DNA from: Promethearchaeota archaeon
GTDB taxonomy: Archaea > Asgardarchaeota > Lokiarchaeia > Sigyniarchaeales > SOKP01
Length of the DNA: 31,318 bases
Assembly (NCBI GenBank): GCA_048938855.1
Contig: JBHLLT010000031.1
Span: 1-31,318, forward strand
Reading direction: 5' to 3'
In this document: positions 13,407-31,318 of the stretch, piece after piece
Numbering within the stretch: position 1 is the first letter of the stretch
Layout: each line of letters starts with the position of its first letter
Position numbers and translations under genes: made by a program
Notes under the pieces: generated by a model
The model's database searches: none
The model's input: only the letters and a program-made list of their open reading frames with translations
What the model was told of the DNA's origin: nothing

Positions 13407-13844
13407 ATGATTGATATCTCTGAAAAAGACACAATTTATAGAACGGCAACGGCATCTGGAAAGATCAAACTTAAGAAAGAAACAATTGTCAGAATAAAAT
13501 CTAATAATGTAGAAAAAGGAGATGCTCTTACTATTGCAAAAGTTTCAGCTATTAATGCAGTTAAGAAAGTACCAGAATTAATTCCATTCTGTCATTCAAT
13601 TTCAATAACAAATATTAAATTAGATTTTGAAATTGAAGAAGAAGATATAAAAGTTATTTGTAAAGTTAAAAGTATTGCTAAAACTGGAGTCGAGATGGAA
13701 GCTTTAACTGGAGTTAATATTGCACTTTTGAATTTATGGGATATAGTCAAAATGTATGAAAAAGATGAAAAAGGGCAATATCCAAATACACAAATTTTCG
13801 ATATTAAAGTCGACAAGAAAGTAAAAGGTGCAGTGTTTCAGTAG
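13407..13844 (+). CDS. moaC: Cyclic pyranopterin monophosphate synthase
   Basis: MIDISEK, RTATASG, LIPFCH, TGVEMEAL, LWDIVK. Confidence 0.95.
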   Translation: MIDISEKDTIYRTATASGKIKLKKETIVRIKSNNVEKGDALTIAKVSAINAVKKVPELIPFCHSISITNIKLDFEIEEEDIKVICKVKSIAKTGVEMEALTGVNIALLNLWDIVKMYEKDEKGQYPNTQIFDIKVDKKVKGAVFQ

Positions 13845-13845
13845 A

Positions 13846-14766
13846 ATGAAGGACAAAAGCAATAGGGAAATTAAACACATCAGATTTTCTATTACTTCCA
13901 AATGTAATTATAATTGTATTTATTGTGACCAAGAAGGATTTATCCCTAAGACTTCTGAACTAACAGTAGATGAGATAACTAAATTATGTAGAATCCTAGC
14001 AGAAATTTTAAACGTCACTAGGATCAAATTAACGGGAGGTGAACCGCTATGCCGCGAAGAAATCGTACAAATTATAAAAAACATTTCTAATTTGAATCTA
14101 TATAAAGACATCTCCATGACAACAAATGGTTTCCTATTATATGAAAAAGCAGAAGAATTATATAAAGCTGGATTAAATCGAATAAATGTTTCTCTAGGAT
14201 CTCTCAATTCAGAAACATACAGAAATATTTATGGGTCAGATTCTCTGGAAGTTGTTTTAAAGGGGTTAAATCGGGCAAAGGAAGTTGGATTTAATCCAAT
14301 TAAATTAAATTTTGTCATAATGAGAGGGATAAATGATAATGAATTAGATAATATGATTGCATTCTGTGGAGAAAATGGATACATCCTACAATTAATTGAA
14401 CTACATGAAGCTTCAGAAGCGGTGGGGGGGAATGGTGAATTTTATAAAAAGCATTATGTAGATATAAAACCTATTATAGAAAATCTTGAATCGAAAGCTG
14501 AACAAACCATAATAAGGGGCTCCATGCAAAACCGAAAAGTCTTTGTATTACCTAATTCTGCTGTTGTTGAAACAATTACACCTAGTCATGAGTTTTGTAT
14601 GGGATGTACAAAACTTAGAGTCGGGTGCGATGGAAATTTATTTGGATGCTTGTATCGTTCAGATCTAGGAAAAAATATTAAGGACGCGATAAGAAACCAT
14701 CATTCATTATCAAAATATGAACAAATTGTGAAACAGGTTGTTGATTCTCGAGAGCCTTATTATTAA
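13846..14766 (+). CDS. moaA: GTP 3',8-cyclase (radical SAM)
   Basis: CNYNCIYC, LTGGEPL, MTTNG, C-terminal FCMGC-x13-C second cluster, archaeal-type REPYY end. ATG 13846, just after the moaC stop, is preferred to GTG 13828. Confidence 0.93.
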   Translation: MKDKSNREIKHIRFSITSKCNYNCIYCDQEGFIPKTSELTVDEITKLCRILAEILNVTRIKLTGGEPLCREEIVQIIKNISNLNLYKDISMTTNGFLLYEKAEELYKAGLNRINVSLGSLNSETYRNIYGSDSLEVVLKGLNRAKEVGFNPIKLNFVIMRGINDNELDNMIAFCGENGYILQLIELHEASEAVGGNGEFYKKHYVDIKPIIENLESKAEQTIIRGSMQNRKVFVLPNSAVVETITPSHEFCMGCTKLRVGCDGNLFGCLYRSDLGKNIKDAIRNHHSLSKYEQIVKQVVDSREPYY

Positions 14767-14787
14767 ATAATTTAAAAATATGATTAT

Positions 14788-15066
14788 ATGATTGTAGAAG
14801 TACTCTATTTTGCTGAGTTTAAAGATATTACCTCTAAAGAAAAAGAAAAAATGGAAATAAAGGACACTTTAGAGGATTTATTGAATTTATTATATGAGAG
14901 ATATAATTCTTTTCAAAAATTAATATGGGATGAAAATACTCAAAGAATACATAATTTAATTTCAATCATAATTAACAATCAAGCAATTTATGAAAAAGAT
15001 CCATCAAAAATAAATTTAAAGGATGGAGATACGATTGCCTTTTTATTGCCCGTTTCAGGAGGATAA
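14788..15066 (+). CDS. moaD: MoaD/SAMP ubiquitin-like sulfur carrier
   Basis: VLYFA start; LKDGDTIAFLLPVSGG C-terminal diglycine. Confidence 0.92.
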   Translation: MIVEVLYFAEFKDITSKEKEKMEIKDTLEDLLNLLYERYNSFQKLIWDENTQRIHNLISIIINNQAIYEKDPSKINLKDGDTIAFLLPVSGG

Positions 15067-15070
15067 AAAT

Positions 15071-15517
15071 ATGCCTTTAATTGAAAAAAATGTAGAATCT
15101 GGTATTTATAATAAAGGGGAGATTGATCTTGAAAAAATAATTAAATCACTAAAAGCGGATCCAAATATTACTAAGGCAGGTTCTATACACACATTCACTG
15201 GGATCGTCAGAGATAATTCTCTTAATGGTAAACCGGTCATCAGCATGAAAATTGACGCATATGATGAATTAGCAAATAAGAGTATTACTAAAATTTGTGA
15301 GACACTAAAGCAAAACGATGGGATAATTGAAGTTAAAATTATCCACTTAAAGGGGGATTTTGGACTTTCCGAAGATTTAGTTTATGTTGTAGTAGCATCA
15401 GCGCATAGAAAAGAAGGTTTTGAAGCGATTAGTAATGCAGTTGAAATGTATAAAAAAGAAATTGCTGTGTGGAAGCGAGAAGATTTTACTGATGGTACAT
15501 CTGAATGGATCCATTAA
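15071..15517 (+). CDS. moaE: Molybdopterin synthase catalytic subunit
   Basis: GSIHTFTGIVR, IIHLKG, ASAHRKEGF, KKEIAVWKRE...W. ATG 15071 after the moaD stop is preferred to 15023. Confidence 0.92.
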   Translation: MPLIEKNVESGIYNKGEIDLEKIIKSLKADPNITKAGSIHTFTGIVRDNSLNGKPVISMKIDAYDELANKSITKICETLKQNDGIIEVKIIHLKGDFGLSEDLVYVVVASAHRKEGFEAISNAVEMYKKEIAVWKREDFTDGTSEWIH

Positions 15518-15576
15518 AAATCCTAAAGAAGAATGATTAAGATTATATGAATAATAAGTATTACTGAACAAAGTGA

Positions 15577-16809
15577 TTGTTCATGAAATTTCTTAAAACT
15601 ATTAGCGTAAAAGAGTTTAGACAAGTACTTAATTCTATACAAAGGATAGAAACGGGAGAAGAATTAATCAGTTTAAATGATTCCTTTAACAGAACAATTT
15701 CAAAAGATATAATTAGTAGAATTAATGTCCCACATTTTAGAAAATCACGAATGGATGGATATGCCGTCATGGCAGAAGATACTTTTGGCGCGGAAGAAGA
15801 TAACATAATTGAACTTGAATTAGTTGAGATAATTCAAGCGGGAGATATACCCCAAAAAAAGTTAAGTCAAGGCCAATGTTCTTATTTAGCAACAGGAGGA
15901 GCTATCCCTGAGAATTCCAATGCAGTATTAATGGTAGAATTTACAGAAAAAAGAGAAAATAAAGTTTTAATTTCCAATGCTGTCTCGCCTGGAACTCATG
16001 TTATTGCAGTTGGGCATGATGTAAAAAAAGGAGATGTTATAGTTAAGAAGAATTCATTAATTAATTTAGCGACCATAGGTATTCTTGCTTCGTGTGGAAT
16101 TAAAAAGGTTCCAGTATATATTAAACCAAAAGTAAGCCTAATAAGCACAGGAAATGAATTAGTTACCCAAGATGTAAAAGAACTAGATATTGGTAAGATT
16201 TATGATGTAAATTCCTTTGTTTTGACAAGAGCTATTGAAAATACAGGTGTTCAACTAAGCTATTTAGGGATTGTGAGAGATAACTATGAAGATTTAAAGA
16301 ATAATATTGATAAAGCATTAAATGATAGCGACATTGTCATTTTATCAGGAGGTACGTCAAAAGGAGAAGGGGATTTAGGCCCTAAAGTTTTAGAAGAATA
16401 TAAAAATATTGAAATTTTTGTTCATGGAGTAAAAATAAAGCCAGGAAAACCAATTATTTTCGTAAAAATGGAAAAAAAAATACTATTTATTTTACCTGGT
16501 TATCCTACTTCTGCGTTAAGTTGTTTTTATGTATTTATTGACAATTTTTTAAGAAGAATGTCTGGTTTTCCTTTACGAGATAAATTTGCCAAAGAATTAG
16601 TTACGGGTGAAAGAATTTATAGTACAATCGGTAGGCATGAATTTAAAGCTGTTAAGATTCAAGAACAAGACGGAATAAGCAAAATTTTTCCTATTAAAAC
16701 TGGTTCGGAAGCAATAAGTACGATATTTCAAAGTGATGGTTATATAGAAATAGATGAACTAGAATCCGTAATAGAAAAAGGAGAATTAAGAAAAGTATTC
16801 TTCTTCTAA
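15577..16809 (+). CDS. moeA: Molybdopterin metal (Mo/W) insertase, paralogue 1 (start TTG 15577 or ATG 15583)
   Basis: PHFRKSRMDGYAV, ATGGAIP, ISTGNEL, SGGTSKG, IKPGKP, LPGYPTS. Confidence 0.93.
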   Translation: MFMKFLKTISVKEFRQVLNSIQRIETGEELISLNDSFNRTISKDIISRINVPHFRKSRMDGYAVMAEDTFGAEEDNIIELELVEIIQAGDIPQKKLSQGQCSYLATGGAIPENSNAVLMVEFTEKRENKVLISNAVSPGTHVIAVGHDVKKGDVIVKKNSLINLATIGILASCGIKKVPVYIKPKVSLISTGNELVTQDVKELDIGKIYDVNSFVLTRAIENTGVQLSYLGIVRDNYEDLKNNIDKALNDSDIVILSGGTSKGEGDLGPKVLEEYKNIEIFVHGVKIKPGKPIIFVKMEKKILFILPGYPTSALSCFYVFIDNFLRRMSGFPLRDKFAKELVTGERIYSTIGRHEFKAVKIQEQDGISKIFPIKTGSEAISTIFQSDGYIEIDELESVIEKGELRKVFFF

Positions 16810-16834
16810 TAAAAATTAAATAATATAAGGAAGA

Positions 16835-17404
16835 GTGATAAAAATAAAAGAAACCCACAAAGTCCCTGATGAACATAAAAAGAAGGCTCCTCAAGAAATA
16901 AATCTAGCTTTAATAATTGTTAGTACTAGTCGATATAATGAAAAAAATACTGGAAAAAGAACTTCAGATAAAACAATTCCTAAAGTTGAGCAATTATTAA
17001 AGGATGAGCAAAAGATAAAATTAGAATTTAATAGTATCATTCCAGACTCAGAAGATGAAATAAAACGAGTAACATTACAATTATTAAAAAATCCTAAAAT
17101 TGATGCAATAATTTTCAGTGGTGGTACAGGTCTATCACCGAAAGATATCACGTATGAAACATTGGAACCAAGGTTGGGAAAAAAATTTGATGGATTTGGA
17201 GAATTATTTAGATCTCTTTCCTACAATGAAATAGGTTCCTCTGCTATGCTCTCTAGAGCTACAGCTGGTATTCTAGAAGGCAAAAAGAAAAATGTAGCAG
17301 TTTTTTTACTTCCAGGATCTCCGAATGCAGTCCGGTTGGCCCTTCAATATATTCTTATACCTGAACTGGGTCATATTTTATATTTAATCAATAAGGAAGA
17401 GTGA
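16835..17404 (+). CDS. moaB: MoaB/MogA family molybdopterin adenylyltransferase
   Basis: IIVSTS, SDKT, IIPD, SGGTGLSPKDIT, GFGELFR, AMLSRA, LPGSPNAV. Confidence 0.92.
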   Translation: MIKIKETHKVPDEHKKKAPQEINLALIIVSTSRYNEKNTGKRTSDKTIPKVEQLLKDEQKIKLEFNSIIPDSEDEIKRVTLQLLKNPKIDAIIFSGGTGLSPKDITYETLEPRLGKKFDGFGELFRSLSYNEIGSSAMLSRATAGILEGKKKNVAVFLLPGSPNAVRLALQYILIPELGHILYLINKEE

Positions 17405-18657
17405 AATTAATGGAAAAATTGCATAAAATTGGATTTTCAAAACTAACATCTTTAAAAGCGGCTATAGATATGCTATTTTCCAAAATTAAGATAAATTCTT
17501 CTGAAGAAGTGGAAATAAACAATGTTTTAAATAGAATTTTAGCCATGGATGTTATTAGTAAAATTGATATCCCTCCTTTTGATCGTTCAGCTATGGATGG
17601 CTATGCTATTAAAGCAGAAGACTCATTTGGGGCATCTCCTAAAAATCCAAAAAAAATTAAATTGATTGGTAAAATCGAAATTGGTGAAACTGCAAAACTT
17701 AAAATTAATAAAAATGAAGCAATAAGAATTTCTACTGGTGCTCCGATACCAGAGGGTTCAGATACTGTAATAAAAATTGAAGATACTGAAATCAAAAACG
17801 ATATAATTAGCCTTTATGCATCTCTAGTGCCAAGAAAAAACGTATCAAGAAAAGGGGAAGATTTTAGAAGTGGAATAAAAGTTTTACCTAAGGGTATAGA
17901 ACTAAAAGCAGAACATATAGCTCTTTTAACTTCACTAGGATACGATAAAGTATCAGTAAATATAAAACCAGAAATAAGCATTTTTTCTTCTGGAGATGAA
18001 TTAATTGAACCTGGAGAATCACTGAAACCTGGAAAAATTTATAACTCAAACACTCCAATGATTTCAGCTTTAGTAAAATTATATGGTGGTATAGTACTTA
18101 GAGGCGAATCAGTACGAGATGATAAAGAATCGATCAGAATCCGATTAATTGAATCATCAAAAGACTCTCAAGTAATAATCTTTACTGGGGGTACATCTGT
18201 CGGTACTAAAGACTATCTACCTGAGATTATGAATGAATCAGGGATGATTTTAACTCATGGTGTTGCTCAAAGGCCGGGAGCACCGGTTTTAATTGGTTAT
18301 TTGAGTGATACATTAGTATTCTGTCTTCCTGGTACTCCGGTTGCTGCTTATGTTTCTTTTTTAAAAATTGTAGGACCAGCTATAAGAAAAATGTTAGGGT
18401 GTAAAGTTTTAGATCCAAGGATTAAAATTAACGCAAAACTTAGTAAAGACGTTCCTGTTCCAAGTTTAGGATTTGTTCACTATCTAAGAGTCAGTCTAGA
18501 GAGATCTAGAGAGGGTATTATAGCTAATCCAGTAAAATTAAGAGGATCTGGGGTTATAAGCTCATTAACTTTTTCAGATGGGATTGTTGAGATATTACCA
18601 CATCAAGAAGGTTTGAAAAAAGGTGATGAAGTAATAGTAAAACTCATGCCAAAATAG
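17401..18657 (+). CDS. moeA: Molybdopterin metal (Mo/W) insertase, paralogue 2
   Basis: PPFDRSAMDGYA, ISTGAPIP, SSGDEL, YNSN, TGGTSVG, RPGAP, LPGTP; GTGA overlap with moaB. Confidence 0.93.
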   Translation: MKLMEKLHKIGFSKLTSLKAAIDMLFSKIKINSSEEVEINNVLNRILAMDVISKIDIPPFDRSAMDGYAIKAEDSFGASPKNPKKIKLIGKIEIGETAKLKINKNEAIRISTGAPIPEGSDTVIKIEDTEIKNDIISLYASLVPRKNVSRKGEDFRSGIKVLPKGIELKAEHIALLTSLGYDKVSVNIKPEISIFSSGDELIEPGESLKPGKIYNSNTPMISALVKLYGGIVLRGESVRDDKESIRIRLIESSKDSQVIIFTGGTSVGTKDYLPEIMNESGMILTHGVAQRPGAPVLIGYLSDTLVFCLPGTPVAAYVSFLKIVGPAIRKMLGCKVLDPRIKINAKLSKDVPVPSLGFVHYLRVSLERSREGIIANPVKLRGSGVISSLTFSDGIVEILPHQEGLKKGDEVIVKLMPK

Positions 18658-18780: not shown

Positions 18781-19701
18781 ATGGCTATATATATAGATTT
18801 AATTACTCCAATATTTTTAGCCTTCCGAGAAGGTTTGGAAGCAACATTAGTCGTCGTTATCATTTTAATGTATTTAAGAAAAACAAATCAACGTGTTTAT
18901 AATAGATATGTTTATATTGGGGCAATATTGGCAATCTTTACAAGTATACTTTTTGCTATTATTTTCTCTTTACTCTTTGGAGGTTTTACAGGGACTTTAG
19001 AACAGCTATTTGAGGGGATTACATTTGTAATCTCTGGTATATTGATTGTCACTTTAGTCTTATGGGTAAGTAAGGAAGGGCCCAAGATGAGAGTAAACCT
19101 GGCAGAAAAAGTTGAACAGTCAATTCAAAGAGAAAAAGTTTTTTCAATTTCTATATTAACATTTGTAATAATAATCAGAGAAGGCATTGAATTAGTTCTT
19201 TTATTATCTGGAACTGCATCTATAGGTTCTATCAATCAACTTACAATAATCCTAGGATCTATGATGGGATTGGGAATTTCAGGGATTTTTGGACTCTTGA
19301 CATATTATGGTATAAGAACAATTGATATATCCAAATTCTTTAAAGCGACTAACATAATTCTAATTTTCTTTGCTGCTGGTTTAATTACTTATGGTGTACA
19401 TGAGTTCATTGAAGCAGGGGTTATTAATCCTATCATAGGAGAAGTTTGGAACATTAAACAAATTTTGCCAGAATCGTTTCCTGATGGCAATCCAGCAACT
19501 CCCGAATGGCTTGAAATAATAGGTTCATTATTAAAAGCGTTATTTGGTTATAATGCAAATCCTTCACTTTTAGAAGTTATAATATATCCCAGTCTTTTAA
19601 TTTTAATTGGTTTAGTATCTCTAAAGTTATGGAAACGAACGAATTCAGCTGTTTTGATGAATTTAGAGAAACAAAAGAAAATTAAAATTATGTTAGACTA
19701 A
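18781..19701 (+). CDS. FTR1/EfeU family iron permease
   Basis: Two RExxE motifs (FREGLEA, IREGIEL), GVHEFIE, LKALFGY; about 7 TM helices. Confidence 0.93.
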   Translation: MAIYIDLITPIFLAFREGLEATLVVVIILMYLRKTNQRVYNRYVYIGAILAIFTSILFAIIFSLLFGGFTGTLEQLFEGITFVISGILIVTLVLWVSKEGPKMRVNLAEKVEQSIQREKVFSISILTFVIIIREGIELVLLLSGTASIGSINQLTIILGSMMGLGISGIFGLLTYYGIRTIDISKFFKATNIILIFFAAGLITYGVHEFIEAGVINPIIGEVWNIKQILPESFPDGNPATPEWLEIIGSLLKALFGYNANPSLLEVIIYPSLLILIGLVSLKLWKRTNSAVLMNLEKQKKIKIMLD

Positions 19702-19811
19702 TTATTTTATTTTTTCGCAAATCTTAATTTAAATTTAACTTTTTTAAAAAAATCTCGCACTTACAGCTTTATAATGGAAAATTATTTTAGAAATGGTTAA
19801 TTCTGATAAGT

Positions 19812-20693
19812 ATGGTTGATGTTACCACTATTGTGGAAGAAATACAAGGAAAATATAAAATAATTGGTAGAACGGAAGAGTTAAGAAAGATCGTTTTAGC
19901 TCATGCAGTTGGTAAGAATATTTTATTGGAGGGAAACGTTGGAGTAGGTAAAACAACATTAGCTAGAGCTATTGCTGATTATTATAGTTCTGAAGATTCA
20001 AATTTCTATAGAGTAGACTGTAGTGAAGAACTACTTCCTCATAATCTTGTAGGATACTTTGAGCCCCCTTTAGTAATTGCAAAAGGTTATATTGAAGAAT
20101 CATATAAATATGGGCCGTTAGCATTAGCAATGATGAATGGTGGGTGTTTATTTATAAATGAAATAAATCGGATGCCAGAAAGTACTCAAAATTCATTATT
20201 AACATCTTTGGATGAAGGTATTCTTGAAATTCCAAAATTAAAAACAATAAAAGCTCACAAAAATTTCTTTGTTGTAGCAACTCAAAATCCAGCCGCTCAT
20301 GTAGGAGTAACAGTGTTAGGTGAAGCATTAAAAGATAGATTTATTTGGATTAATTTGGATTATCAAAGTCCAGAAGAAGAAATTTTAATAATAAAACAAG
20401 AAGCTCAATTGAACAGTGGAAATGCTAATAAAATAGCAACTATCTCTCAAAATATCACTCAAATAACAAGAGATAGTACGTCCATTCGCAGAGGTAGTTC
20501 TGTCAGAGGAGCCATAGACTTAGCTACCCTATTAAATCAGTATGATAATGACAATAGTAGTAAGAATTGGGTTGAAGCTGCTGTGATGGCATTGTATAAT
20601 AAAATTGAACTTGAAGACGGATTGACACAATCCAAAAAAGAAGTCATTACTAACATTGTTTTGACCGTTTTAAACAATTCGGATTTTCAATAG
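19812..20693 (+). CDS. MoxR-family AAA+ ATPase
   Basis: Walker A GNVGVGKT, Walker B variant LFINEINR, ATQNP, EALKDRF, SVRG sensor II. Confidence 0.92.
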   Translation: MVDVTTIVEEIQGKYKIIGRTEELRKIVLAHAVGKNILLEGNVGVGKTTLARAIADYYSSEDSNFYRVDCSEELLPHNLVGYFEPPLVIAKGYIEESYKYGPLALAMMNGGCLFINEINRMPESTQNSLLTSLDEGILEIPKLKTIKAHKNFFVVATQNPAAHVGVTVLGEALKDRFIWINLDYQSPEEEILIIKQEAQLNSGNANKIATISQNITQITRDSTSIRRGSSVRGAIDLATLLNQYDNDNSSKNWVEAAVMALYNKIELEDGLTQSKKEVITNIVLTVLNNSDFQ

Positions 20694-21802
20694 TCAATGA
20701 TTTCTCTGAGGATGATTCTGAGGAGATTGAGAAAAGGCTGCATGTTAGACTTACTGATAGTCGCCCAGATAAGGAAATATTAGAGTATGAAATTATTAGG
20801 AAGAAACGGAAAAAACCTGATTATTATAAACATTTAGCAAATACCTTGGACTATAAACAAATAAAAGAATTAGCATATTTGGCAATACAGTACAAAAACA
20901 TTGAAGCTCTAATGGGATTACTTAAATCTAATGTATATGCTGCAACTGATGCATTAGATACTGAAGAAGGAATTAAATTCTTTTCAGAAAAAGCTACCGA
21001 AGCAGGTGATTTTATGCCAGAGGTTTATTTCTTTATTCGGCGTCCAATTTCTGAAAAATACAAATCAATTTTTAGGCGTTTAGCACGCCAAAGTATTTTA
21101 AAATTATCTTTAAAAATAACAAGCAAAGGAATAAGAGGACAATTTAAAAAAACTGTTCCTTATTACAAAATAAGTACGCCCGAATTCAGCATTGATGAAA
21201 CTATTCAGCATAATCCTTTAAAAATATTTGAGAAGAATATAAATTATAAAGATATATATGGAATTGAAAGAAAGAGACAAAAAAGGAAAATAGTTTTAAT
21301 ATTAGATACTAGTGGAAGTATGTATGGACGTCTATTATTAAATGCCGCTCTTACAACATCAGTTTTGGCTTATAATATGGAGAAAGAAGACTATGCTATT
21401 ATATTATTTAATTCTAATGTGATGGTTATGAAAAAAATTAATCAGAAAAAACCTATAGCTACGATTATAGATGATATACTGGATTCTGAAGCATCAGGAT
21501 TTACCAATATATCTCTCGGTTTGGAAAAGGGCTTAAAAGAATTAAATAAAATGAAGGATAATAGAAAAAATCGGTTTGGCATTTTAATTACTGATGGGAA
21601 TTACAATCGAGGAGAAGACCCAATTACTTTAGCAAAAACTTTTCCAAAACTTCATGTTATAGGAATGCCTGCTGAAAATGATGCGGATCAAGGCATAGAG
21701 ACGTGTCGAGAAATTGCCAATGCAGGAAGTGGAAAATTCTATGCTGTAAATGATTACAAAGAAATTCCACGAGCCTTAATAGAACTTCTCTCTCAAACAT
21801 GA
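20690..21802 (+). CDS. VWA (MIDAS) domain protein; 5' end uncertain (frame open from 20654; possible ATA start at 20690, TTG at 20846, or entry by -1 frameshift from the AAA gene)
   Basis: LILDTSGSM, GFTNIS and LITDG MIDAS residues. The frame upstream of 20846 continues as protein-like IVNDFSEDDSEEIEKRLHVRLTDSRPDKEILEYEIIRKKRKKPDYYKHLANT. Confidence 0.85.
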   Translation: MVNDFSEDDSEEIEKRLHVRLTDSRPDKEILEYEIIRKKRKKPDYYKHLANTLDYKQIKELAYLAIQYKNIEALMGLLKSNVYAATDALDTEEGIKFFSEKATEAGDFMPEVYFFIRRPISEKYKSIFRRLARQSILKLSLKITSKGIRGQFKKTVPYYKISTPEFSIDETIQHNPLKIFEKNINYKDIYGIERKRQKRKIVLILDTSGSMYGRLLLNAALTTSVLAYNMEKEDYAIILFNSNVMVMKKINQKKPIATIIDDILDSEASGFTNISLGLEKGLKELNKMKDNRKNRFGILITDGNYNRGEDPITLAKTFPKLHVIGMPAENDADQGIETCREIANAGSGKFYAVNDYKEIPRALIELLSQT

Positions 21803-21987: not shown

Positions 21988-22572
21988 TTGACTTTCGAAG
22001 AAGCAGAAAAACCCACTTATGTTTTTAAGATATGTCTAGTCGGATCTGGGGCTGTAGGAAAGACATGTATAGCTCGAAGGTTATGCTTTAATACCTTTGA
22101 TGCGAACACACAGTTAACCATTGGAATAGATTTTTATACATATGAGATCCCAATAGTAGTAAAAGGCGAAAAAACTTTTTTAAGACATACAATTTGGGAC
22201 TTTGGGGGGCAAGAACAATTCAAAAGATTATTTAATTATTATATAGATGGAGCTAATGGTATTTTTTTAGTATTTGATTTATCCAAAATAGAGACATTAG
22301 TAAAACTAGATTGGTGGATGGAACAGTTGAAAGAGCATGACTTATTAAATCGACCAAAAATCTTGATTGGTACAAAACTTGATCTTATTAGTAATACTAA
22401 TAAAAAGTATAAAATTGATGATTTAGTTATTGAACAATTTCTTAGCAGACATAATGAGAAAGATTTTGTAAAGACATCTTCAAAAGAAAATATAAATATA
22501 CTTCTTAGTTTTAAGGAAATGACTAGGAAAATCCTTGAAGCGCATAAATTAGATTACGATGATTTCATTTAA
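21988..22572 (+). CDS. Small GTPase, Rab-like
   Basis: G1 GSGAVGKT, G2 LTIGIDF, G3 WDFGGQEQF, G4 GTKLD, G5 TSSK; no C-terminal Cys prenylation motif. Confidence 0.93.
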   Translation: MTFEEAEKPTYVFKICLVGSGAVGKTCIARRLCFNTFDANTQLTIGIDFYTYEIPIVVKGEKTFLRHTIWDFGGQEQFKRLFNYYIDGANGIFLVFDLSKIETLVKLDWWMEQLKEHDLLNRPKILIGTKLDLISNTNKKYKIDDLVIEQFLSRHNEKDFVKTSSKENINILLSFKEMTRKILEAHKLDYDDFI

Positions 22573-23396: not shown

Positions 23397-23987
23397 TTGT
23401 CTGAATTAAAAACTGCCCACCGGTTAATACGAATGACTGTTGTGGGAGATGGAGCTGTAGGAAAGACTACTTTAGTACAAGCTCTATTAAAAAAAACTAA
23501 AGAAAGTAACCATAATCATTCAAATGGTATATTTTTAGAGGAAAAAAAAATAAATCGTACTCCTTTTATGGAAATTGAATCTTGGAATTATAAAGACTTG
23601 GTTTTTCAATGCTATGATTTAGCTGGACAAAGAACTCCAGGTATGCATCCATTAGATGTTTTAAGACATCAAGTCCTCAAGTATATTGACATTTTTATTT
23701 TCGTATTTTCATTAGATCGGTACGAGTCGTTTGAAAACCTTAATAATTGGCTTCGAATAATGAATAATGAATATAATATTAAAGATTACAATCCTGGTCT
23801 TATTTTAGTGGGTAACAAAGTTGATTTAGAAAGAAATGTTTCACGAGAGTTGGTACAAACTTTAGTAGGAGAAGATAGATTTTTCCATACTTATGTAGAA
23901 ACGAGTTCCATTTATGGAATCGGTATAGAAGAAATATTAGATAAAATCGTTAATATTGGTCTAAAACGCTTGAATTTATACGATTAG
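23397..23987 (+). CDS. Small GTPase (Ras superfamily, atypical switch regions)
   Basis: GDGAVGKT, RTPF, YDLAGQ, GNKVD, ETSS. Confidence 0.9.
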   Translation: MSELKTAHRLIRMTVVGDGAVGKTTLVQALLKKTKESNHNHSNGIFLEEKKINRTPFMEIESWNYKDLVFQCYDLAGQRTPGMHPLDVLRHQVLKYIDIFIFVFSLDRYESFENLNNWLRIMNNEYNIKDYNPGLILVGNKVDLERNVSRELVQTLVGEDRFFHTYVETSSIYGIGIEEILDKIVNIGLKRLNLYD

Positions 23988-24046: not shown

Positions 24047-26272
24047 ATGACCACAATTAATTGTAAAATATGTAATGAAATAATACAGTTTGATCCTAAT
24101 AATTCTGAGACCTACTTACACAAAACTGAATCAGGAAATCCTATGATTGGAAAAATGTTTACAATCAGATTAGGTCATTTTACTGAGGCAGGATCTTCTC
24201 ATATAAACGTTATTGTTATTGACGAAAATGGAGAATATCGAGCTCATAAGGATTACTATGAAGAAAAACTCAGTATAAAGGGAACACCAGATGCTTGGAA
24301 TAAACTTCATCGTTATATTCCTTTAGAACTTAGAATGTATTTGCCTTTAGCAAGTGAGGAAGATAAAATTATTTTAGCTACAACACCAGAACCATTAAAT
24401 AAAACACCACAAGAATGGTATGATTGTTTAATTGATTTATGGCAAAATAATTCTGATAACCAATTAATCACTTTTCTAGCCGTAAAATGGGGTTTTATAA
24501 TTGGAAAAGGTAAAGAACTTATAAAATATACATATAAACCCACTTCTTGGAGCTATCCTATATATTTACGATTACAGGCAAGGTTTTCACCCTCATCAGA
24601 ACTAATTCAAATTGCTAAAAGAATTGATTTCACATCTGCCCCATTAATCATTCAATTAGAGGAAGCAATAGCAAAATCTGAAGTTTTTCTTAGGTTGAGT
24701 GCTTATGAACTTTTAGAGGAATTGTATAATCGTTGCCAAAAAAAGTGGGGAAATCAGACTTCTATAGAAATCAAAACAGGCTTAATGTTTTTACAAGGTT
24801 ATTATGGATTTAGATTATATTTTCTAGGAAAAATAAACGAGGCATTAGAAATTATAGAACCTGTCTTTAATTTTGGACAGATTTTAGGAAACCGGGAAAT
24901 AACAATGGTTGTAGGAAACTTCTATGCTGCTGTCAATCAATCTAGTGGAGATTTAGAAAAAGCTTTAAAAATTTTTGAAATTGTATTAAGGGTTAGTGAG
25001 GAGATGGGAGATGAAAGAACTAACGCCGTTATTTCATCGAATATGTCAGTTATTGAATCTAAACAAGGATTATATGATAAAGCTCTAAAACGTCAAAGAG
25101 CAATATTGGAACTACCAATAGTGCAAGAAGAATTTTTTATAAGAAGTTCTTTAATGAGTATCATAGCTGAAACTCTTTTTATTTCTGAAAAATATGATGA
25201 ATCACAAGAATTATGCAAACAGGTTCTTGCAGAAGAAAATATTCCTACATATTATAAACTCGACCTTCTTTCTACTCTTAAAAGAATTGCAGGCAAAACA
25301 GATTCTCTTGAACTGATTGATTTTGTTAGAAATAATATGCCTGATGATCCAGAATTTTTAGAATCACCTGTAGGTGATATATTTAGGCATGATCTGGAGG
25401 CTATAGAAGCAGAATTAAAGAGCAAATGGTCAATTTTAATTGAACACCTGAATGAAGAAAGAGATATTATGTTTAAGAATCAATCAGTTGAGGATGCTAG
25501 TGATATTGAAATTAGACTTGCTGAGGGATATTTTAAGTATTTTCAAGAAACAAAAAATCTTGCGCACTTAAATCATGCATATAACCATTTAGATTTAGCC
25601 AAAACTATTGCTATTGAAAATCAAAGTTATTTGGATCTTTGCAGACTTGTTATACTAAAAGGATTATTAGCAGCGGAAAGCAAATTATCAGAACAAGCAA
25701 AAATATTTTTTGAAGAAGCCTTAAGAACCGCTCGAGATTTTAATTTATCAGGTTTAGAAAATGAAATAAATATAAATCTAGAACAATTAAGTAGTGGGAC
25801 AATTGAAAAATCAGCCGATTCGGTCTTGCGAAGGATGTTTCAAAGATTAACCTTCCGAAAGTCTGAAGAAAAAAAAACTACAAAGAAAAGTACAATTTAT
25901 TCTATGTTTATAGGCACACAAGATTCTGCTTGGGAAGTAATTTTGCAAAATGAAAAGAGCGGTTCGCCTCAAGATACCGAATATCTTATTGGAATTCATG
26001 ATTTATGGGCTAATGTAAAGAAAAAGATGTTACAACAACAAATTAATTATTTCACAGTAAGGCGAGGCGCAGTATTAATAGAAAATTCAACTCATTTTCA
26101 ATTAATCGCTTTATGTGATCAATTGGATTATTTAACTAGGTTAACAATTCAAAATCTCCTACCAGAATTGGAAGAATTCTCTTTTAGACACATTCCAGAA
26201 GAGTTAGAAGATAAGGTCATAAAAATACTTAGTAAAGACATTGGTAAATTTTCTAAAGTGGAAATTTCTTAG
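24047..26272 (+). CDS. Multidomain protein: N-terminal Zn-ribbon-like domain, central TPR-like solenoid, C-terminal longin-like domain
   Basis: CKIC...H...HINVIVIDENGEYR; TPR-like units (LGKINEALEI, SGDLEKALKIF, QGLYDKAL, EQAKIFFEEAL); last ~115 aa show a longin-like strand/helix pattern (inferred). Confidence 0.65.
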   Translation: MTTINCKICNEIIQFDPNNSETYLHKTESGNPMIGKMFTIRLGHFTEAGSSHINVIVIDENGEYRAHKDYYEEKLSIKGTPDAWNKLHRYIPLELRMYLPLASEEDKIILATTPEPLNKTPQEWYDCLIDLWQNNSDNQLITFLAVKWGFIIGKGKELIKYTYKPTSWSYPIYLRLQARFSPSSELIQIAKRIDFTSAPLIIQLEEAIAKSEVFLRLSAYELLEELYNRCQKKWGNQTSIEIKTGLMFLQGYYGFRLYFLGKINEALEIIEPVFNFGQILGNREITMVVGNFYAAVNQSSGDLEKALKIFEIVLRVSEEMGDERTNAVISSNMSVIESKQGLYDKALKRQRAILELPIVQEEFFIRSSLMSIIAETLFISEKYDESQELCKQVLAEENIPTYYKLDLLSTLKRIAGKTDSLELIDFVRNNMPDDPEFLESPVGDIFRHDLEAIEAELKSKWSILIEHLNEERDIMFKNQSVEDASDIEIRLAEGYFKYFQETKNLAHLNHAYNHLDLAKTIAIENQSYLDLCRLVILKGLLAAESKLSEQAKIFFEEALRTARDFNLSGLENEININLEQLSSGTIEKSADSVLRRMFQRLTFRKSEEKKTTKKSTIYSMFIGTQDSAWEVILQNEKSGSPQDTEYLIGIHDLWANVKKKMLQQQINYFTVRRGAVLIENSTHFQLIALCDQLDYLTRLTIQNLLPELEEFSFRHIPEELEDKVIKILSKDIGKFSKVEIS

Positions 26273-26323
26273 AAATTTTTATTATTATTCTTAACACTAT
26301 TTTATAGATTTCTCAAAAAGAAT

Positions 26324-26752
26324 TTAAAATATATCCATAGGTATTGCTTTTTCAATTTTACTATCTATTTCATCAGTTGGTTTTTTGATACATCCTATTT
26401 TAATCATAGCATCGACTCCCGTTGGGCTTAAAATCTTTGTAATATCATTACAAATTTTTGAAGGCCCATTTTTTGTTGAGCCTGTGGCAAAAGCAATGAG
26501 TTTTTTTCCTATTAGGTTAAAGTTTGTAATTTTTAACAAAAATTCTCGGAATTCTTTCGCTATATTATAATAATGTGTAGGTGAACCTAAACCTATAATA
26601 TTAAAATCTTTAATTGAATCGACGTTCTTAAAATCTATATCTTGATACATCTCAACAGTTATATTCAGAGATTTTAGCCTTTTTACAATTTTTTCAGCTA
26701 ATAATTTAGTATTTCCAGAACGCGTATGATATATTATAACGGCTTTTGACAT
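26324..26752 (-). CDS. Flavodoxin family protein
   Basis: IYHTRSGNTKLLA, IGLGSPTHY, AFATG. Confidence 0.85.
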   Translation of the reverse strand: MSKAVIIYHTRSGNTKLLAEKIVKRLKSLNITVEMYQDIDFKNVDSIKDFNIIGLGSPTHYYNIAKEFREFLLKITNFNLIGKKLIAFATGSTKNGPSKICNDITKILSPTGVDAMIKIGCIKKPTDEIDSKIEKAIPMDIF

Positions 26753-26960
26753 AATGAACTCTCCTCTTTGGAATTGTGTAAGAATTCTGTTTTTCTTCTT
26801 TAAAAAAAATTTCCTATTTTAATTTTATTAACTGTGATTTTCAGAAAAATCTAAATACCTCAATATTAATCAAATGAGAAAAGGTGTTAACTTTTGAAAA
26901 ATAACTGAAATGTTTTTTTTACAATTTTCTTTTGATGAATTAAAACAAATAATTTATCTC

Positions 26961-27914
26961 ATGGATATATTTACTCATGCAGTTGTTGGAGCTTTATTGT
27001 ATATACTCTTTTTAAGAGATGTAACTTTTGATTATCTTCCTATAGCTATTTTTTTTGCAGTTTTACCAGATTTAGATATTTTTTTAATTCCATTAAGAAG
27101 AATATTTAAATCAAAATATCTTGATCATCGTGGAGGTTCTCACTCATATGTTATGGGTATAATGGTATCTGCGTTTTTAAGTATTTTTTACTCAATTTTT
27201 AGATCTAAATCATTTTTTATAACATGGATAATAGGAACAGTGTTTTATGGACTGCATGTATCCATGGATCTACTTACGACTACAAAAATACCGTACTTAT
27301 ATCCGCTTTCTAAAAAGGAACATTGCTTTTATGTTGAAAAGGCAGGTAGTTTTTTCACCATGGTAAACTCCATATTTTTAATCCTTCTTTTAGTACTATT
27401 GTTTAATTTTTCTGCTGATTTAGCCCTAATTCGATTTGTCCTTAATCTTTATACTGCCTTTTTTATTATATATTACTTTTATCGAATTGTGTCGAAAGTT
27501 TGGTTCTCTTCAAACCTCAAAGATAATCAAAAATACTTTCCCAGTATTTCACCATTCTCCTTTGTTATTTATAATCAAAACATAACTGAAAATAATATAT
27601 TATTAAAATTAGAGAAAAAAAATCATTTTTTAAAGCCTAAGGAGATAAGCAATATCGATTTTACTCTGAACCACGAGGAAATGATTCTTTTCGAAAAAAG
27701 TATGGAATTGTTAAAGAAAAATTACTATTACGCAAAATGGACTTTATTTCCAATAATTATTAGGAATAATGACGTTTTTTGTGTGAGGTTTTACTTCTTA
27801 GAAACGATGAGGCGCAAAAGTGCTTTTTATATTCAGTATCATTTTGGTATGTTAACTCACCAATTAATTAGCTATAAGCGTGGTTCTGGCCCTATTCAAT
27901 CCCAATATGGCTAA
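26961..27914 (+). CDS. Membrane-bound metal-dependent hydrolase (YdjM-like)
   Basis: MDIFTH (family-typical start, so ATG 26961 is preferred to 26910), LPDLD, HRGGSHS, LHVSMDLLT, LYPLS. Confidence 0.88.
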   Translation: MDIFTHAVVGALLYILFLRDVTFDYLPIAIFFAVLPDLDIFLIPLRRIFKSKYLDHRGGSHSYVMGIMVSAFLSIFYSIFRSKSFFITWIIGTVFYGLHVSMDLLTTTKIPYLYPLSKKEHCFYVEKAGSFFTMVNSIFLILLLVLLFNFSADLALIRFVLNLYTAFFIIYYFYRIVSKVWFSSNLKDNQKYFPSISPFSFVIYNQNITENNILLKLEKKNHFLKPKEISNIDFTLNHEEMILFEKSMELLKKNYYYAKWTLFPIIIRNNDVFCVRFYFLETMRRKSAFYIQYHFGMLTHQLISYKRGSGPIQSQYG

Positions 27915-27918
27915 ATCC

Positions 27919-28290
27919 TTAATCTCCTGTTGGTTTAACAGTGCTTTTTTCTACTAATAAGACTGCCGTTCGAGAGGGAGCTCTCGTTCGATGCATCACA
28001 CCCATCGGAACTGTAAAGCCTTGATTCGGTTTGAGAAAGATAGTTTCTTCATTTAAATCAATTAAAAGGACACCCTCGAGAACAAAAAAAAACTCATCTT
28101 CGTTATCATGTTTATGCCAATGAAATTGTCCTTCGATGACTGCTAGCCGAATAACAGAATCATTAACCTCACAAAGAGACAAATTTTGCCATTTTTTTGT
28201 ACAGCTAGCTATTAATGTTGAAGTATCAATAACTTCCAATGGTTTAAATTTAATATCAGGATCAATCGAATATTTATTATAATCACTCAT
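27919..28290 (-). CDS. Cupin domain protein
   Basis: GQFHWHKHDNEDEFFFVLEG and VPMGVMHRT cupin motifs 1 and 2. Confidence 0.92.
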   Translation of the reverse strand: MSDYNKYSIDPDIKFKPLEVIDTSTLIASCTKKWQNLSLCEVNDSVIRLAVIEGQFHWHKHDNEDEFFFVLEGVLLIDLNEETIFLKPNQGFTVPMGVMHRTRAPSRTAVLLVEKSTVKPTGD

Positions 28291-28339
28291 CTTTAATCTC
28301 CCTATAAAAGTAAGATAAAACTCATACTATATATTGCTT

Positions 28340-29431
28340 TTATGTTATTTCAAGACATTGAGCCAAACATCTTTTCACACAAGCATTACAATTAATACAC
28401 TTTTCAGGATTTATTAAGTCAACTTTCTTATCTCTTTCATTAAATAGATACAAATTTCTAGGGCATACTTCAATACATATTTTACATCCAATACATTTGT
28501 CTCTCTCGAGAGTAATTTGTCCATAAGGTTGTAATTTATATTCACCAAACAAAAACTTCATTTTTTTTTCCCCTTTCTTCCACTTTTTAGCGCCTAATTC
28601 ACTCTTATAAATTGGAGTTAATCCATGAAAATCTTCTGCCATAATTAATGAAATTAAAAGAGAAGATACTATATTCCAAATTAAATAGAAAATGTTAAAC
28701 ACAATAAATAGATTGAATAGAACAATGATGATAAGAACAACCCCTTCATAAATCCATACTTTTGATTTTCCCGTTTTAGTATGAAAACTAGGCAAAATTA
28801 GCATAGTGCCATAAATAATAGTAACTAAAATTAAAAGAGTATCTAAATAAAGGATAAGAGTTAAAATTGGCAAAAATATAGAAGAAATCCAATAGACTGC
28901 TGAAAGAAGAATTGTTAAAATAAAAAAATATAACGTCCCCATTTCTATTCTTTTAGTGATTGGAAATCTTATCATTCTCTGGGCTTTAGATTTAATATAT
29001 CCCTGTTCTATAAAGGAAGGGATATCTTTAGCATAAACGGGCCCAAATTTTACATCCCATCCGACTTTTTTTTTAATAATAATGGGATCTATTCCAGAAG
29101 CACTTAATTGAGGTAAGATTAAAGTTTTATGAGATACCAGATCATCTATTCCACTAGTTTTTACAATCGATAAAACAGAATCAGTGTGAAAATCGTCTCC
29201 ACACGCTCCACACCACACATTGATTCCTTTGGAAGGGGCAATTAACAAATAACAATCAAGGTTATTAATTGCCTTTAACACCCGCTTCACAGTTAAAATG
29301 AAATTACATGTTAGAAAAACTGGGCTTTCCCGTGTAGGATTTCCGACTTTTACTAATGTGGGTTCTACAGGAAAACCAGTCCATCTAAGGAAGTAACTTA
29401 AAAATAATTTAAAAGATTTTTTTACACTCAT
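28340..29431 (-). CDS. Fused HgcAB-like protein: corrinoid-binding (CdhD/HgcA-type) domain, TM helices and 2[4Fe-4S] ferredoxin
   Basis: GNPTRESPVFLTCNFILT, KGINVWCGACG cap helix, LILPQLSASG, VKFGPVYAKDIP; about 4-5 TM helices; CIGCKICIEVCP and CINCNACVKRC. Confidence 0.88.
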   Translation of the reverse strand: MSVKKSFKLFLSYFLRWTGFPVEPTLVKVGNPTRESPVFLTCNFILTVKRVLKAINNLDCYLLIAPSKGINVWCGACGDDFHTDSVLSIVKTSGIDDLVSHKTLILPQLSASGIDPIIIKKKVGWDVKFGPVYAKDIPSFIEQGYIKSKAQRMIRFPITKRIEMGTLYFFILTILLSAVYWISSIFLPILTLILYLDTLLILVTIIYGTMLILPSFHTKTGKSKVWIYEGVVLIIIVLFNLFIVFNIFYLIWNIVSSLLISLIMAEDFHGLTPIYKSELGAKKWKKGEKKMKFLFGEYKLQPYGQITLERDKCIGCKICIEVCPRNLYLFNERDKKVDLINPEKCINCNACVKRCLAQCLEIT

Positions 29432-29460
29432 GGTCCAATCATCTAACTTAATTTGTAATA

Positions 29461-30120
29461 TTAGATCATTTTTTTCAATCGAAATAACTTTAATGTATCC
29501 AATAAATAATACTTTTCTTCAATTAAAGAGAAATTATGATCTTCAAGTCTTTGTTCAATATTTTTTAAATAATTAGTAGTTAATTGTGATTTAAAATATG
29601 TAATAATTACTAAGGGAATTTTGATAAAAAAATATACCACTTTCTTCCAAAATTTCTTAGGTTTTACCTCATCAATTAAAATAAATTCTCCATCGTCAGT
29701 TAATATTCTATTAATTTGGTCCAAGCAATAATTTTGTTCATTTTGATAAAATTCACTAAACGATAAAATAGCCGTTATTTTATTAAAAGATTTATCAGAA
29801 AATTTCTCATCTAATTCAATAACTGGCATTTTAATAATTTCAATATTCTCAGTTAATCCTTGCTGTTTAATATTATGACTTGCTACTTCAAGCATTTTTT
29901 CTGAATTATCAATACCCGTAACTCTTGCTCCTTTTTGTGCACATAAAATTGCTAAAGTTCCAGTTCCCATACCAATATCTAAAATCTTCTCATCCTTTTT
30001 CACTAAATTATCAGCAATATGATTTTTTATTTTTGATAACCTCCCTAATGTTAAAATCTCAATTCCTTTATCATATTTTTCTGCTTTTTTTTCTAACGCT
30101 TTCATATAAACATATGACAT
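29461..30120 (-). CDS. Class I SAM-dependent methyltransferase, probably corrinoid protein-associated (CpaM-like)
   Basis: ILDIGMGTG, VTGIDNSEKML. The N-terminal SYVYMKALE...YDKGI..L.LG and position next to an HgcAB-like gene match my recollection of the CpaM family. Confidence 0.8.
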   Translation of the reverse strand: MSYVYMKALEKKAEKYDKGIEILTLGRLSKIKNHIADNLVKKDEKILDIGMGTGTLAILCAQKGARVTGIDNSEKMLEVASHNIKQQGLTENIEIIKMPVIELDEKFSDKSFNKITAILSFSEFYQNEQNYCLDQINRILTDDGEFILIDEVKPKKFWKKVVYFFIKIPLVIITYFKSQLTTNYLKNIEQRLEDHNFSLIEEKYYLLDTLKLFRLKKMI

Positions 30121-30458
30121 GTGTGTGAAAGAGCCTCGATTTAATTTTTATAATGATTTCAAGAGAATTTTATATATCTATAATTATTAAAAATTTGTGT
30201 TTAAAATAATATAAATTTTTTTAAATAATCCAAAATTATATTATGTTGAAAAATAAATAATCGAAATTCAATTTGGGATGTGGAAAAATATCTTTGCTGG
30301 CTTAGAAGAATTGTTTTTGACTATATCAAAAGACAAGAAAATTCCGAACTATTTCATTCCACTTATAACAAATTTATCTTTATAATAAAGAGAAAAGCAG
30401 TAAAATTTTATTCTTTTTTCTATAGATATTAAAAATTTATACAGTCCTTCTGCTAATA

Positions 30459-30767
30459 AAATTTAAGGAAATAAAGGAATCTTCTGCGTCTAAGCTAATT
30501 AAAAGAGCAGAAGCTCTAGTCCCGGATTTAAGCAATCACATTTTAGCCCTTGACATTGCCACACCAATTACAATGTACCGATATACACTAAACCATCAAA
30601 GAGCGGCAGTAGGATGGTATTATACATAAATTAAATCATGGAAGTAAAAGGTTCCCTTTACAAGAGGACTATTTCTAGCGAGACACTGGACTGGTCCTTC
30701 AGGCATTCCAACAGTAATACAATCTGGCAAAAACGCAGTAGAATTAATATTAACACATGAAAATTAA
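30459..30767 (+). pseudogene. Decayed C-terminal fragment of a phytoene desaturase/CrtI-like FAD oxidoreductase
   Basis: One frame reads KFKEIKESSASKLIKRAEALVPDLSNHILALDIATPITMYRYTLNHQRAAVGWYYT*IKSWK*KVPFTRGLFLARHWTGPSGIPTVIQSGKNAVELILTHEN*; in-frame TAA at 30627 and 30645; no N-terminal part. Confidence 0.8.
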
Positions 30768-30779
30768 ATATCGTATTTC

Positions 30780-31318
30780 TTAATTATTAATAGCTTTACT
30801 TAACTGCTTAATACTATTGTTAATATACTTCTCAATTTCTTCTTCAGTATGAGGTGGCGTTAAACAGTGCAATTGAAAATGGATTTTCTTATCTATAGTA
30901 AATACAGGAACAAAAATTGCCTCATAAGTTGGTGAAACTCCTCCATATAGCATTTTAATTGTGAATCCTTTAGATGCGATGAATTCATTGAATTTATCTA
31001 GTGAGCCAAGATTGGTAATCCATATGCGATTACTATGTTCTGTTTCTAACGACATCACCTCAGCGAATAACTCAAATGGAACTGCTCTCGTAATTAGCTT
31101 AAAAGTTTTAAATACTTCATCACTATGTAACCCCTTTACTAATTTCTCTTGATATTCACGAGCAATGTCCCAAAAGGAGGATTTGTTTTTATATTTTACC
31201 TTAACCTCTATTCTTCCTGCATATACTCCTACTGATTCTCCAACGGGATACGCTAATTTCTTTCTTAAATCAACCGGATTATAAATAGCTGGAAAATCTG
31301 GGAGAAACATGGTGCATA
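30780..31318 (-). CDS. C-terminal part of a CoA-dependent acyltransferase (condensation/PapA5/alcohol acetyltransferase-like), truncated by the window edge
   Basis: PVDLRKKL, FWDIAREY and IWITNLGSL are typical of this fold; frame open to the window end; catalytic HxxxD not visible. Confidence 0.65.
   Translation of the reverse strand, partial: CTMFLPDFPAIYNPVDLRKKLAYPVGESVGVYAGRIEVKVKYKNKSSFWDIAREYQEKLVKGLHSDEVFKTFKLITRAVPFELFAEVMSLETEHSNRIWITNLGSLDKFNEFIASKGFTIKMLYGGVSPTYEAIFVPVFTIDKKIHFQLHCLTPPHTEEEIEKYINNSIKQLSKAINN

Follow-up and report, generated by a model that had tools for sequence, protein, structure and literature searches.

Purified canonical HgcAB, the mercury methylase, transfers the methyl group of S-adenosylmethionine (SAM) to Co(I) and forms a Cys-ligated methyl-Co(III), with the HgcB clusters serving for reduction (PMC11588087). 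SAM-to-cobalamin chemistry is thus established in the Hgc family. The proteins known as 'fused HgcAB' (Podar 2015; Gilmour 2018; Lin 2023) are curated by NCBIfam as NF043039, 'HgcAB-like fusion protein', together with NF043040, CpaM, the 'corrinoid protein-associated methyltransferase'. Cultures of M. methylutens and P. furiosus, whose hgcAB are fused, formed no methylmercury (MeHg) (PMC5893877), and neither did the organisms with fused hgcAB that were tested in culture elsewhere (PMC10083202). An initial reading of the DNA described here, referred to below as the first-pass annotation, had built on SAM as the donor for purified HgcAB (PMC11588087) and on fused hgcAB without MeHg (PMC5893877), and both claims hold in the literature. 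Asgard members of the fused HgcAB clade have been noted before (PMC10083202), and public protein records already carry the name 'HgcAB-like fusion protein'. Here we analyse such a pair, cpaM and the gene for an HgcAB-like fusion protein, in a stretch of 31,318 nucleotides (contig JBHLLT010000031.1; 'the window' hereafter, with a G+C content of ~30%) from a metagenome-assembled genome of a Promethearchaeota archaeon, a Lokiarchaeia-type Asgard (3.95 Mb, 93 contigs), and show that cpaM and its partner gene belong together as an obligate unit, co-evolve and are often fused.

The window pair has the architecture, gene order and tight spacing of the NF043039/NF043040 family and differs from it in nothing essential. 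The first-pass annotation had called the system uncharacterised, which is correct for its biochemistry but not for its classification, since NCBIfam curates the pair as CpaM and HgcAB-like fusion protein. With canonical HgcA and HgcB (Pseudodesulfovibrio mercurii ND132; the methanogen loci L049 and L050) it shares a corrinoid domain resembling that of the corrinoid iron-sulfur protein (CFeSP), the N-V-W-C cap, a transmembrane (TM) bundle, an FTGxTPFTS-like motif and a two-cluster ferredoxin partner, SAM being the established donor in the canonical system. It differs in that the HgcA and HgcB parts are fused, in having four TM helices instead of five, in the replacement of A(A/G)GK in the cap and in the absence of the HgcB Cys pair; unlike the two methanogen loci, it has a dedicated SAM methyltransferase attached. 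The CFeSP large subunit AcsC/CdhE, which acts with the methyltransferase MeTr, has a homologous corrinoid-domain fold (root-mean-square deviation, rmsd, 2.2-2.5 Å), and the logic of a methyltransferase that loads a corrinoid would be common to both systems. The window protein is, however, membrane-anchored and lacks both the TIM barrel and the N-terminal Fe-S domain (80.7 bits against 306 on the CFeSP large-subunit model NF003195, aligned to the C-terminal corrinoid domain only), and its partner is a Rossmann-fold SAM methyltransferase instead of a pterin-binding TIM barrel. In MetH, a SAM-binding activation domain and flavodoxin reductively methylate cob(II)alamin, a repair reaction. The likeness to the window pair lies in SAM and a low-potential electron carrier acting on a protein-bound corrinoid; the SAM-binding folds are unrelated, and what is repair in MetH would be the main loading step in the pair.

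Linkage, fusion and co-evolution of the two genes

Synteny, co-phylogeny and natural fusions bear out the earlier view that the methyltransferase and the fused corrinoid/TM/ferredoxin protein make up a conserved functional unit. In each of the 32 related Asgard loci retrieved with the corrinoid protein as query, the gene immediately upstream, in the same orientation, encodes a CpaM homologue (45-86% identity). These include the locus of the cultured Promethearchaeum syntrophicum MK-D1 (L041), whose HgcAB-like protein is 59% identical to that of the window. Relatives have 8-120 nt between the two genes, a 4-nt overlap (L102) or a fusion of both. Co-occurrence was examined in 301 Asgard genomes that sample the phylum evenly. 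HgcA-like matches (E ≤ 1e-40) were found in 139 of them and CpaM-like matches (E ≤ 1e-25) likewise in 139, with nearly identical tallies per family. HgcAB-like genes over the cut-off occupy 61 places in these genomes; CpaM is adjacent or in the same open reading frame (ORF) at 58 of these, one pair being split across two contig ends, and one further place begins at a contig end. Outside Asgard archaea, a Methanosarcinales genome carries the pair with a 4-nt overlap (276 and 464 bits). The canonical hgcA-hgcB loci of two methanogens (L049 and L050) have no adjoining methyltransferase gene, nor was any CpaM over the cut-off found genome-wide.

Natural fusions were found in two forms. Other Asgard families encode 13 single-chain CpaM-HgcA-TM-HgcB proteins, 589-655 aa long (L072:1983-3773, L073:1980-3908, L074:1988-3919 and L082-L091), and one triple fusion exceeds both NCBIfam cut-offs (260.6 and 384.8 bits). 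Another 13 proteins of 547-584 aa are CpaM-like-HgcA fusions, each followed by a separate hgcB. Among the best 150 CpaM relatives from 1.84 billion representative proteins, all 19 that are longer than 360 aa have an HgcA/HgcAB-like domain after the methyltransferase, which therefore makes HgcA-like the only fusion partner seen. The AlphaFold2 model of one natural triple fusion (predicted local distance difference test, pLDDT, 92.7; predicted template modelling score, pTM, 0.90) points to a single compact assembly. In-frame TGA codons within frames of ~690 aa were considered as selenocysteine codons and rejected; they are plain stops between the methyltransferase-hgcA part and an in-frame hgcB.

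A quick IQ-TREE phylogeny of the corrinoid domain was calculated with members classed as adjacent pair (type A), triple fusion (type B3) or CpaM-like-HgcA fusion (type C2). Types A and B3 form one clade (support 96), inside which the triple fusions form a clade of their own (96), and the Methanosarcinales protein sits inside the Asgard sequences (100). The C2 fusions fall into three clades, with their placement relative to canonical HgcA unresolved. The methyltransferase tree mirrors that of the corrinoid domain, with the same split between C2 and A plus B3 (99) and identical subclades. Rooting the HgcA family on CFeSP in search of its ancestral state failed, as the backbone was unresolved and long branches met; the methyltransferase-linked state, whose function the first-pass annotation had tentatively put forward as ancestral to the Hgc family, may therefore be either ancestral or derived.

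Composition of CpaM and the HgcAB-like protein

The first-pass annotation had described three co-oriented genes, namely those for the methyltransferase, the corrinoid protein and a cupin, with gaps of 29 and 49 bp. ORF coordinates and sequence agree with this and place all three on the minus strand (Table 1). Strong family matches identify them as real genes and not chance ORFs.

Table 1. Features of the cpaM locus in window coordinates
Feature	Position	Strand	Evidence
cpaM, SAM methyltransferase, 219 aa	30120..29461	-	NCBIfam NF043040, Pfam
Spacer between cpaM and the HgcAB-like gene, 29 nt	29432..29460	-	Sequence reading
HgcAB-like fusion protein, 363 aa	29431..28340	-	NF043039, AlphaFold2, Foldseek
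CFeSP-type corrinoid-binding domain, ~aa 17-145	28997..29383	-	PF03599, PDB alignments, Foldseek
Cap-helix segment NVWCGACGDDF, aa 71-81, with presumed cobalt-ligating Cys74 and second Cys77	29189..29221	-	Motif, 59-member alignment
Four TM helices, aa 158-266, then conserved D..G.TP...S motif	28634..28960	-	AlphaFold2, hydropathy, conservation
HgcB-like 2[4Fe-4S] ferredoxin domain, aa 305-363	28343..28519	-	Fer4 families, Cys motifs
Spacer between the HgcAB-like gene and the cupin gene, 49 nt	28291..28339	-	Sequence reading
Cupin, 123 aa, adjacent gene outside the module	28290..27919	-	Cupin_2, 46.7 bits

The HgcAB-like protein scores 363.3 bits on NF043039 (cut-off 285), covering positions 3-349 of the 350 in the model. 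Pfam, motifs, AlphaFold2 and Foldseek all confirm the proposed combination of an HgcA-type corrinoid domain, TM helices and a 2[4Fe-4S] ferredoxin in one chain. PF03599 (CdhD) spans residues 22-139 (E 7e-16), and the best sequence matches in the PDB are CFeSP large subunits, of which 2h9a, 4c1n and 4djd align to residues 20-144. The model built by AlphaFold2 with a 59-member alignment (pLDDT 89.4, pTM 0.84) returned the deposited HgcAB model 9a0b_A as its top Foldseek match, with 9a0b_B also matched, and, next in rank, corrinoid domains from CFeSP large subunits (rmsd 2.2-2.5 Å over ~128 residues). The protein is predicted to bind cobalamin and two [4Fe-4S] clusters.

The cap helix reads GINVWCGACGDDF. 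Its NVWC motif occupies residues 71-74, and N71, W73 and C74 are invariant in the 59-member alignment. The second Cys, three residues past the presumed cobalt-ligating one (WCGACG), is common to many but not all Asgard members of types A and B, and variants without it include WCASAGG and WCSATGG. The cap segment has a pLDDT of just 55 and is non-helical in the apo model. The TM helices were placed at residues 158-186, 192-215, 221-244 and 247-266 in the AlphaFold2 model, in agreement with hydropathy and conservation, and the motif that follows them corresponds to the FTGxTPFTS stretch in two methanogen HgcA proteins. With an even number of helices, the ferredoxin and corrinoid domains would lie on the same side of the membrane. 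The ferredoxin domain contains two CxxCxxCxxxC motifs (CIGCKICIEVC from residue 313 and CINCNACVKRC from residue 345). Across the alignment seven cluster Cys never vary, and C316, C359 and C60 are kept by at least 90% of the members. The C-terminus (...CVKRCLAQCLEIT) ends four residues past C359, an additional Cys, and lacks a vicinal Cys pair.

CpaM scores 256 bits on NF043040 (cut-off 180) over positions 1-215 of 216 and is a class I SAM methyltransferase by Pfam (Methyltransf_31/25/11). Motif I (LDIGMGTG) is intact, and further family-conserved motifs such as V.giD are present. No PDB sequence matched CpaM at 1e-8. The class I fold was seen by AlphaFold2 and Foldseek for the methyltransferase domain of the triple fusion, and a Foldseek search with that model returned generic class I methyltransferases only. 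The family is small, with 54 representatives at E ≤ 1e-30 in the search among 1.84 billion proteins; a 'CpaM family' cluster in the ESM Atlas has 408 members, bacterial for the most part. ArsM-like metalloid binding was considered and rejected, as the alignment of CpaM of types A and B shows no conserved Cys column; ArsM models scored far below their cut-offs on the window CpaM. The lack of a conserved Cys argues against an ArsM-like site and leaves the corrinoid, or another substrate that is not metal-bound, as the target of CpaM. The window CpaM may transfer the SAM methyl group to the protein-bound corrinoid.

A proposed methyl relay and its alternatives

We consider it probable, though far from certain, that CpaM and the HgcAB-like protein constitute a two-protein, membrane-bound and cobalamin-dependent methyl relay to which the cupin does not belong. 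In such a relay the fused ferredoxin domain would reduce the corrinoid to Co(I). CpaM would bind SAM and pass its methyl group to Co(I), giving a Cys-ligated methyl-Co(III) as in HgcA, and the methyl group would then be transferred to an acceptor at the membrane face, probably not Hg(II). The direction of methyl flow, an action of CpaM on cobalt and the nature of the acceptor are only inferred. The window pair has an intact corrinoid/TM/Fe-S architecture and intact SAM-binding motifs, and the canonical mercury hallmarks of HgcA and HgcB are missing.

The locus could in principle encode a divergent but genuine mercury methylase, given its homology to HgcA and HgcB and the retention of the cap-helix Cys, the TM bundle and both Fe-S clusters. 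The protein falls, however, below both curated cut-offs, with 158 bits on the HgcA model NF040863 (cut-off 275) and 46.9 bits on the HgcB model NF040864 (cut-off 99). Its cap, NVWCGACGDD, deviates from the canonical N(V/I)WCA(A/G)GK, which the methanogen controls retain as NVWCAAGK. The C-terminal vicinal Cys pair of HgcB is likewise absent; C73, C94 and C95 of HgcB are required for mercury methylation (PMC11588087). The missing HgcB Cys tail and canonical cap helix, together with the lack of MeHg from cultured organisms with fused hgcAB (PMC5893877, PMC10083202), make mercury an unlikely acceptor, and we regard a mercury methylase as very improbable, in line with the first-pass annotation, which had advised against counting the locus as a mercury methylator and had proposed the HgcA model as a check. 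That annotation had also included the cupin as a functional partner in a three-gene system. Its gene is co-oriented, lies 49 nt downstream and has its own GGAG ribosome-binding site. Co-occurrence of all three genes nevertheless stands for CpaM and the HgcAB-like protein only, as the cupin was found by tblastn in none of the 32 related loci, where the genes downstream of the pair vary. Cupin orthologues (63-79% identity) are present in 17 of 25 same-genus genomes, where they are unlinked to the pair: they lie on contigs other than the pair's in G177, G246 and G291, and they also occur in G150, G192 and G225, which have no type A pair and only the other Hgc-like type. The cupin is a chance neighbour outside the system, and a role for it as third component is scarcely credible.

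Two other readings keep the pair and assign CpaM a different task. It might be a repair module which, with the fused ferredoxin, rescues oxidised Co(II) by reductive methylation in the manner of the MetH activation domain and flavodoxin; the methyl group used in turnover would then have a different source, either another donor or SAM that the corrinoid protein binds on its own. In favour of repair, the constant presence of a SAM enzyme beside a low-potential ferredoxin domain agrees with reductive activation, and canonical HgcAB works without a separate methyltransferase (PMC11588087). A repair factor would, however, rarely be fused 1:1 in cis over so many lineages, and the pair has no other methyl-donor enzyme as a conserved neighbour. 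The ferredoxin can moreover be explained without repair, because HgcA-type turnover always ends at Co(III) and needs reduction. We therefore hold repair to be unlikely, and much the same estimate applies to the proposal that both enzymes would successively methylate a single membrane or small-molecule substrate, for instance a lipid, a cofactor or a natural product. CpaM would in that case perform an ordinary SN2 methylation, and the corrinoid protein, itself taking SAM, a chemically harder second one. The methyltransferase domain does resemble phosphatidylethanolamine N-methyltransferase, Coq5, RebM and TleD in structure, UbiE/MenG are the best sequence families of CpaM after CpaM itself, and the pairs of relatives often lie among other methyltransferases (PEMT/ICMT-like in 10 + 5 loci, class I in 8). 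Yet these neighbours are limited to one Asgard family and absent from the window, and the Foldseek matches are generic for class I methyltransferases. The strict 1:1 coupling and the fusion in a fixed N-to-C order fit a direct hand-over better.

Some points weigh against the relay itself. The chemistry does not demand a dedicated loader, since canonical HgcAB, acting without another methyltransferase, takes the methyl group for its cobalamin from SAM (PMC11588087), and CpaM could have a different task. Two of the 61 HgcAB-like places (G160:C333 and G205:C89) truly have no upstream methyltransferase, and our literature search found no publication that names CpaM together with a corrinoid.

The two orphan genes (L104:943-2103 in G160:C333 and L105:1634-2815 in G205:C89) are both over the family cut-off and have the cap NVWCGATGG. 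G160 also holds a second, CpaM-linked HgcAB-like copy elsewhere.

Genomic surroundings, a second Hgc-like system and significance

An Rfam scan of positions 26000-31318 (E ≤ 0.1) gave no match, cobalamin riboswitches included, and no terminator-like intergenic site was found between the three genes in the scan made for them. A sigma-70 promoter scan returned fewer sites than in shuffled sequence; the sigma-70 model is not applicable to an archaeon. The intergenic region upstream of cpaM (30121-30779) is unusually long (~660 nt) and strongly AT-rich, and contains several TATA-like runs without a notable ORF or Rfam match. Beyond it, an ORF at the window edge (30780-31316) has a weak, sub-threshold match to PapA_C, an acyltransferase/condensation-like C-terminus (24.1 bits against 30).

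In one Asgard family (L017-L047), an F420H2_quin_red-like gene lies near the pair in 13 loci, mostly directly downstream. The same family has PEMT/ICMT-like membrane methyltransferases (10 + 5 loci), PNPOx-like proteins (9) and another class I methyltransferase (8) around the pair, and ZIP and TrmB are also recurrent; examples are found at L021:7178-7711, L025:9492-10400 and L040:8653-9339. No recurrent neighbour is universal, and only YdjM (near the pair in 4 loci) is present in the window. These genes could reflect lineage synteny or an accessory set. A downstream flavodoxin gene in the window (26324-26752) was considered as a dedicated electron donor and rejected, as L037 is the only other locus with a flavodoxin in the vicinity of the pair, ~5.8 kb off. 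Elsewhere the window contains a molybdenum-cofactor biosynthesis cluster (13828-18657; a MoaA-like radical SAM protein, two MoeA and a MogA-like protein), followed by an FTR1 iron permease and a pair of MoxR-type AAA and VWA proteins (18781-21802). Two genes for Ras/Roc/Arf-like small GTPases, typical of Asgard archaea (21988-22572 and 23397-23987), and one for a 741-aa TPR protein (24047-26272) come next.

The same genome holds a second Hgc-like system (L010:928-3563 and L005:1835-2797, corresponding to G000:C34, ~271.0-274.7 kb). It comprises a divergent ArsR (N-terminal CGCDDC), a 548-aa CpaM-like-HgcA fusion with the cap NVWCAARGNDF, an EamA transporter and an HgcB-like ferredoxin of 120 aa that carries GCGCLW and, at its C-terminus, an ...SCCG tail. 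This system keeps the HgcB cysteines needed for mercury methylation yet scores below the HgcA and HgcB cut-offs. On the MK-D1 chromosome (L103:1902-5563), a CpaM-like-HgcA fusion and hgcB immediately follow a gene for ACR3 arsenite efflux (295 bits, cut-off 282.8) and lie opposite ArsR. This sister type draws on the same methyltransferase and corrinoid/TM families as the window pair and coexists with window-type pairs in several genomes. It differs from them in that the methyltransferase is fused to HgcA, HgcB is separate and carries GCGC(L/I)W and a C-terminal CC tail, and the cap reads NVWCAARG. It also adjoins ArsR, and in MK-D1 the ACR3 arsenite exporter, whereas no metal regulator accompanies the window pair. 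Such surroundings suggest a link of the sister type to arsenic or another metalloid. The sister type, which retains the HgcB cysteines, is a more interesting candidate for a metal(loid) methylase than the window pair.

The window copy is an ordinary member of the catalogued CpaM and HgcAB-like module and adds nothing new to the family. A wider reading, which we offer tentatively and think somewhat doubtful, takes CpaM with the HgcAB-like protein as the general form of Hgc, in which the electrophilic methyl group of SAM would pass over Cys-ligated cobalamin and reach an electrophilic acceptor in the form of a carbanion or radical, and takes HgcAB without CpaM as a derived offshoot. The acceptor would in that case be a metal(loid) other than mercury or a membrane-bound organic substrate. 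If this were true, mercury methylation by canonical HgcAB would be a side reaction, and the sister type, found in ArsR/ACR3 operons and with an HgcB Cys tail, would use cobalamin to methylate metalloids. Fused HgcAB genes inflate the counts of mercury methylators in metagenomes, and our findings support the exclusion of such genes from inventories of mercury methylators. An obligatory, co-evolving and often covalently fused methyltransferase partner provides a concrete biochemical handle on what HgcAB-like proteins do.

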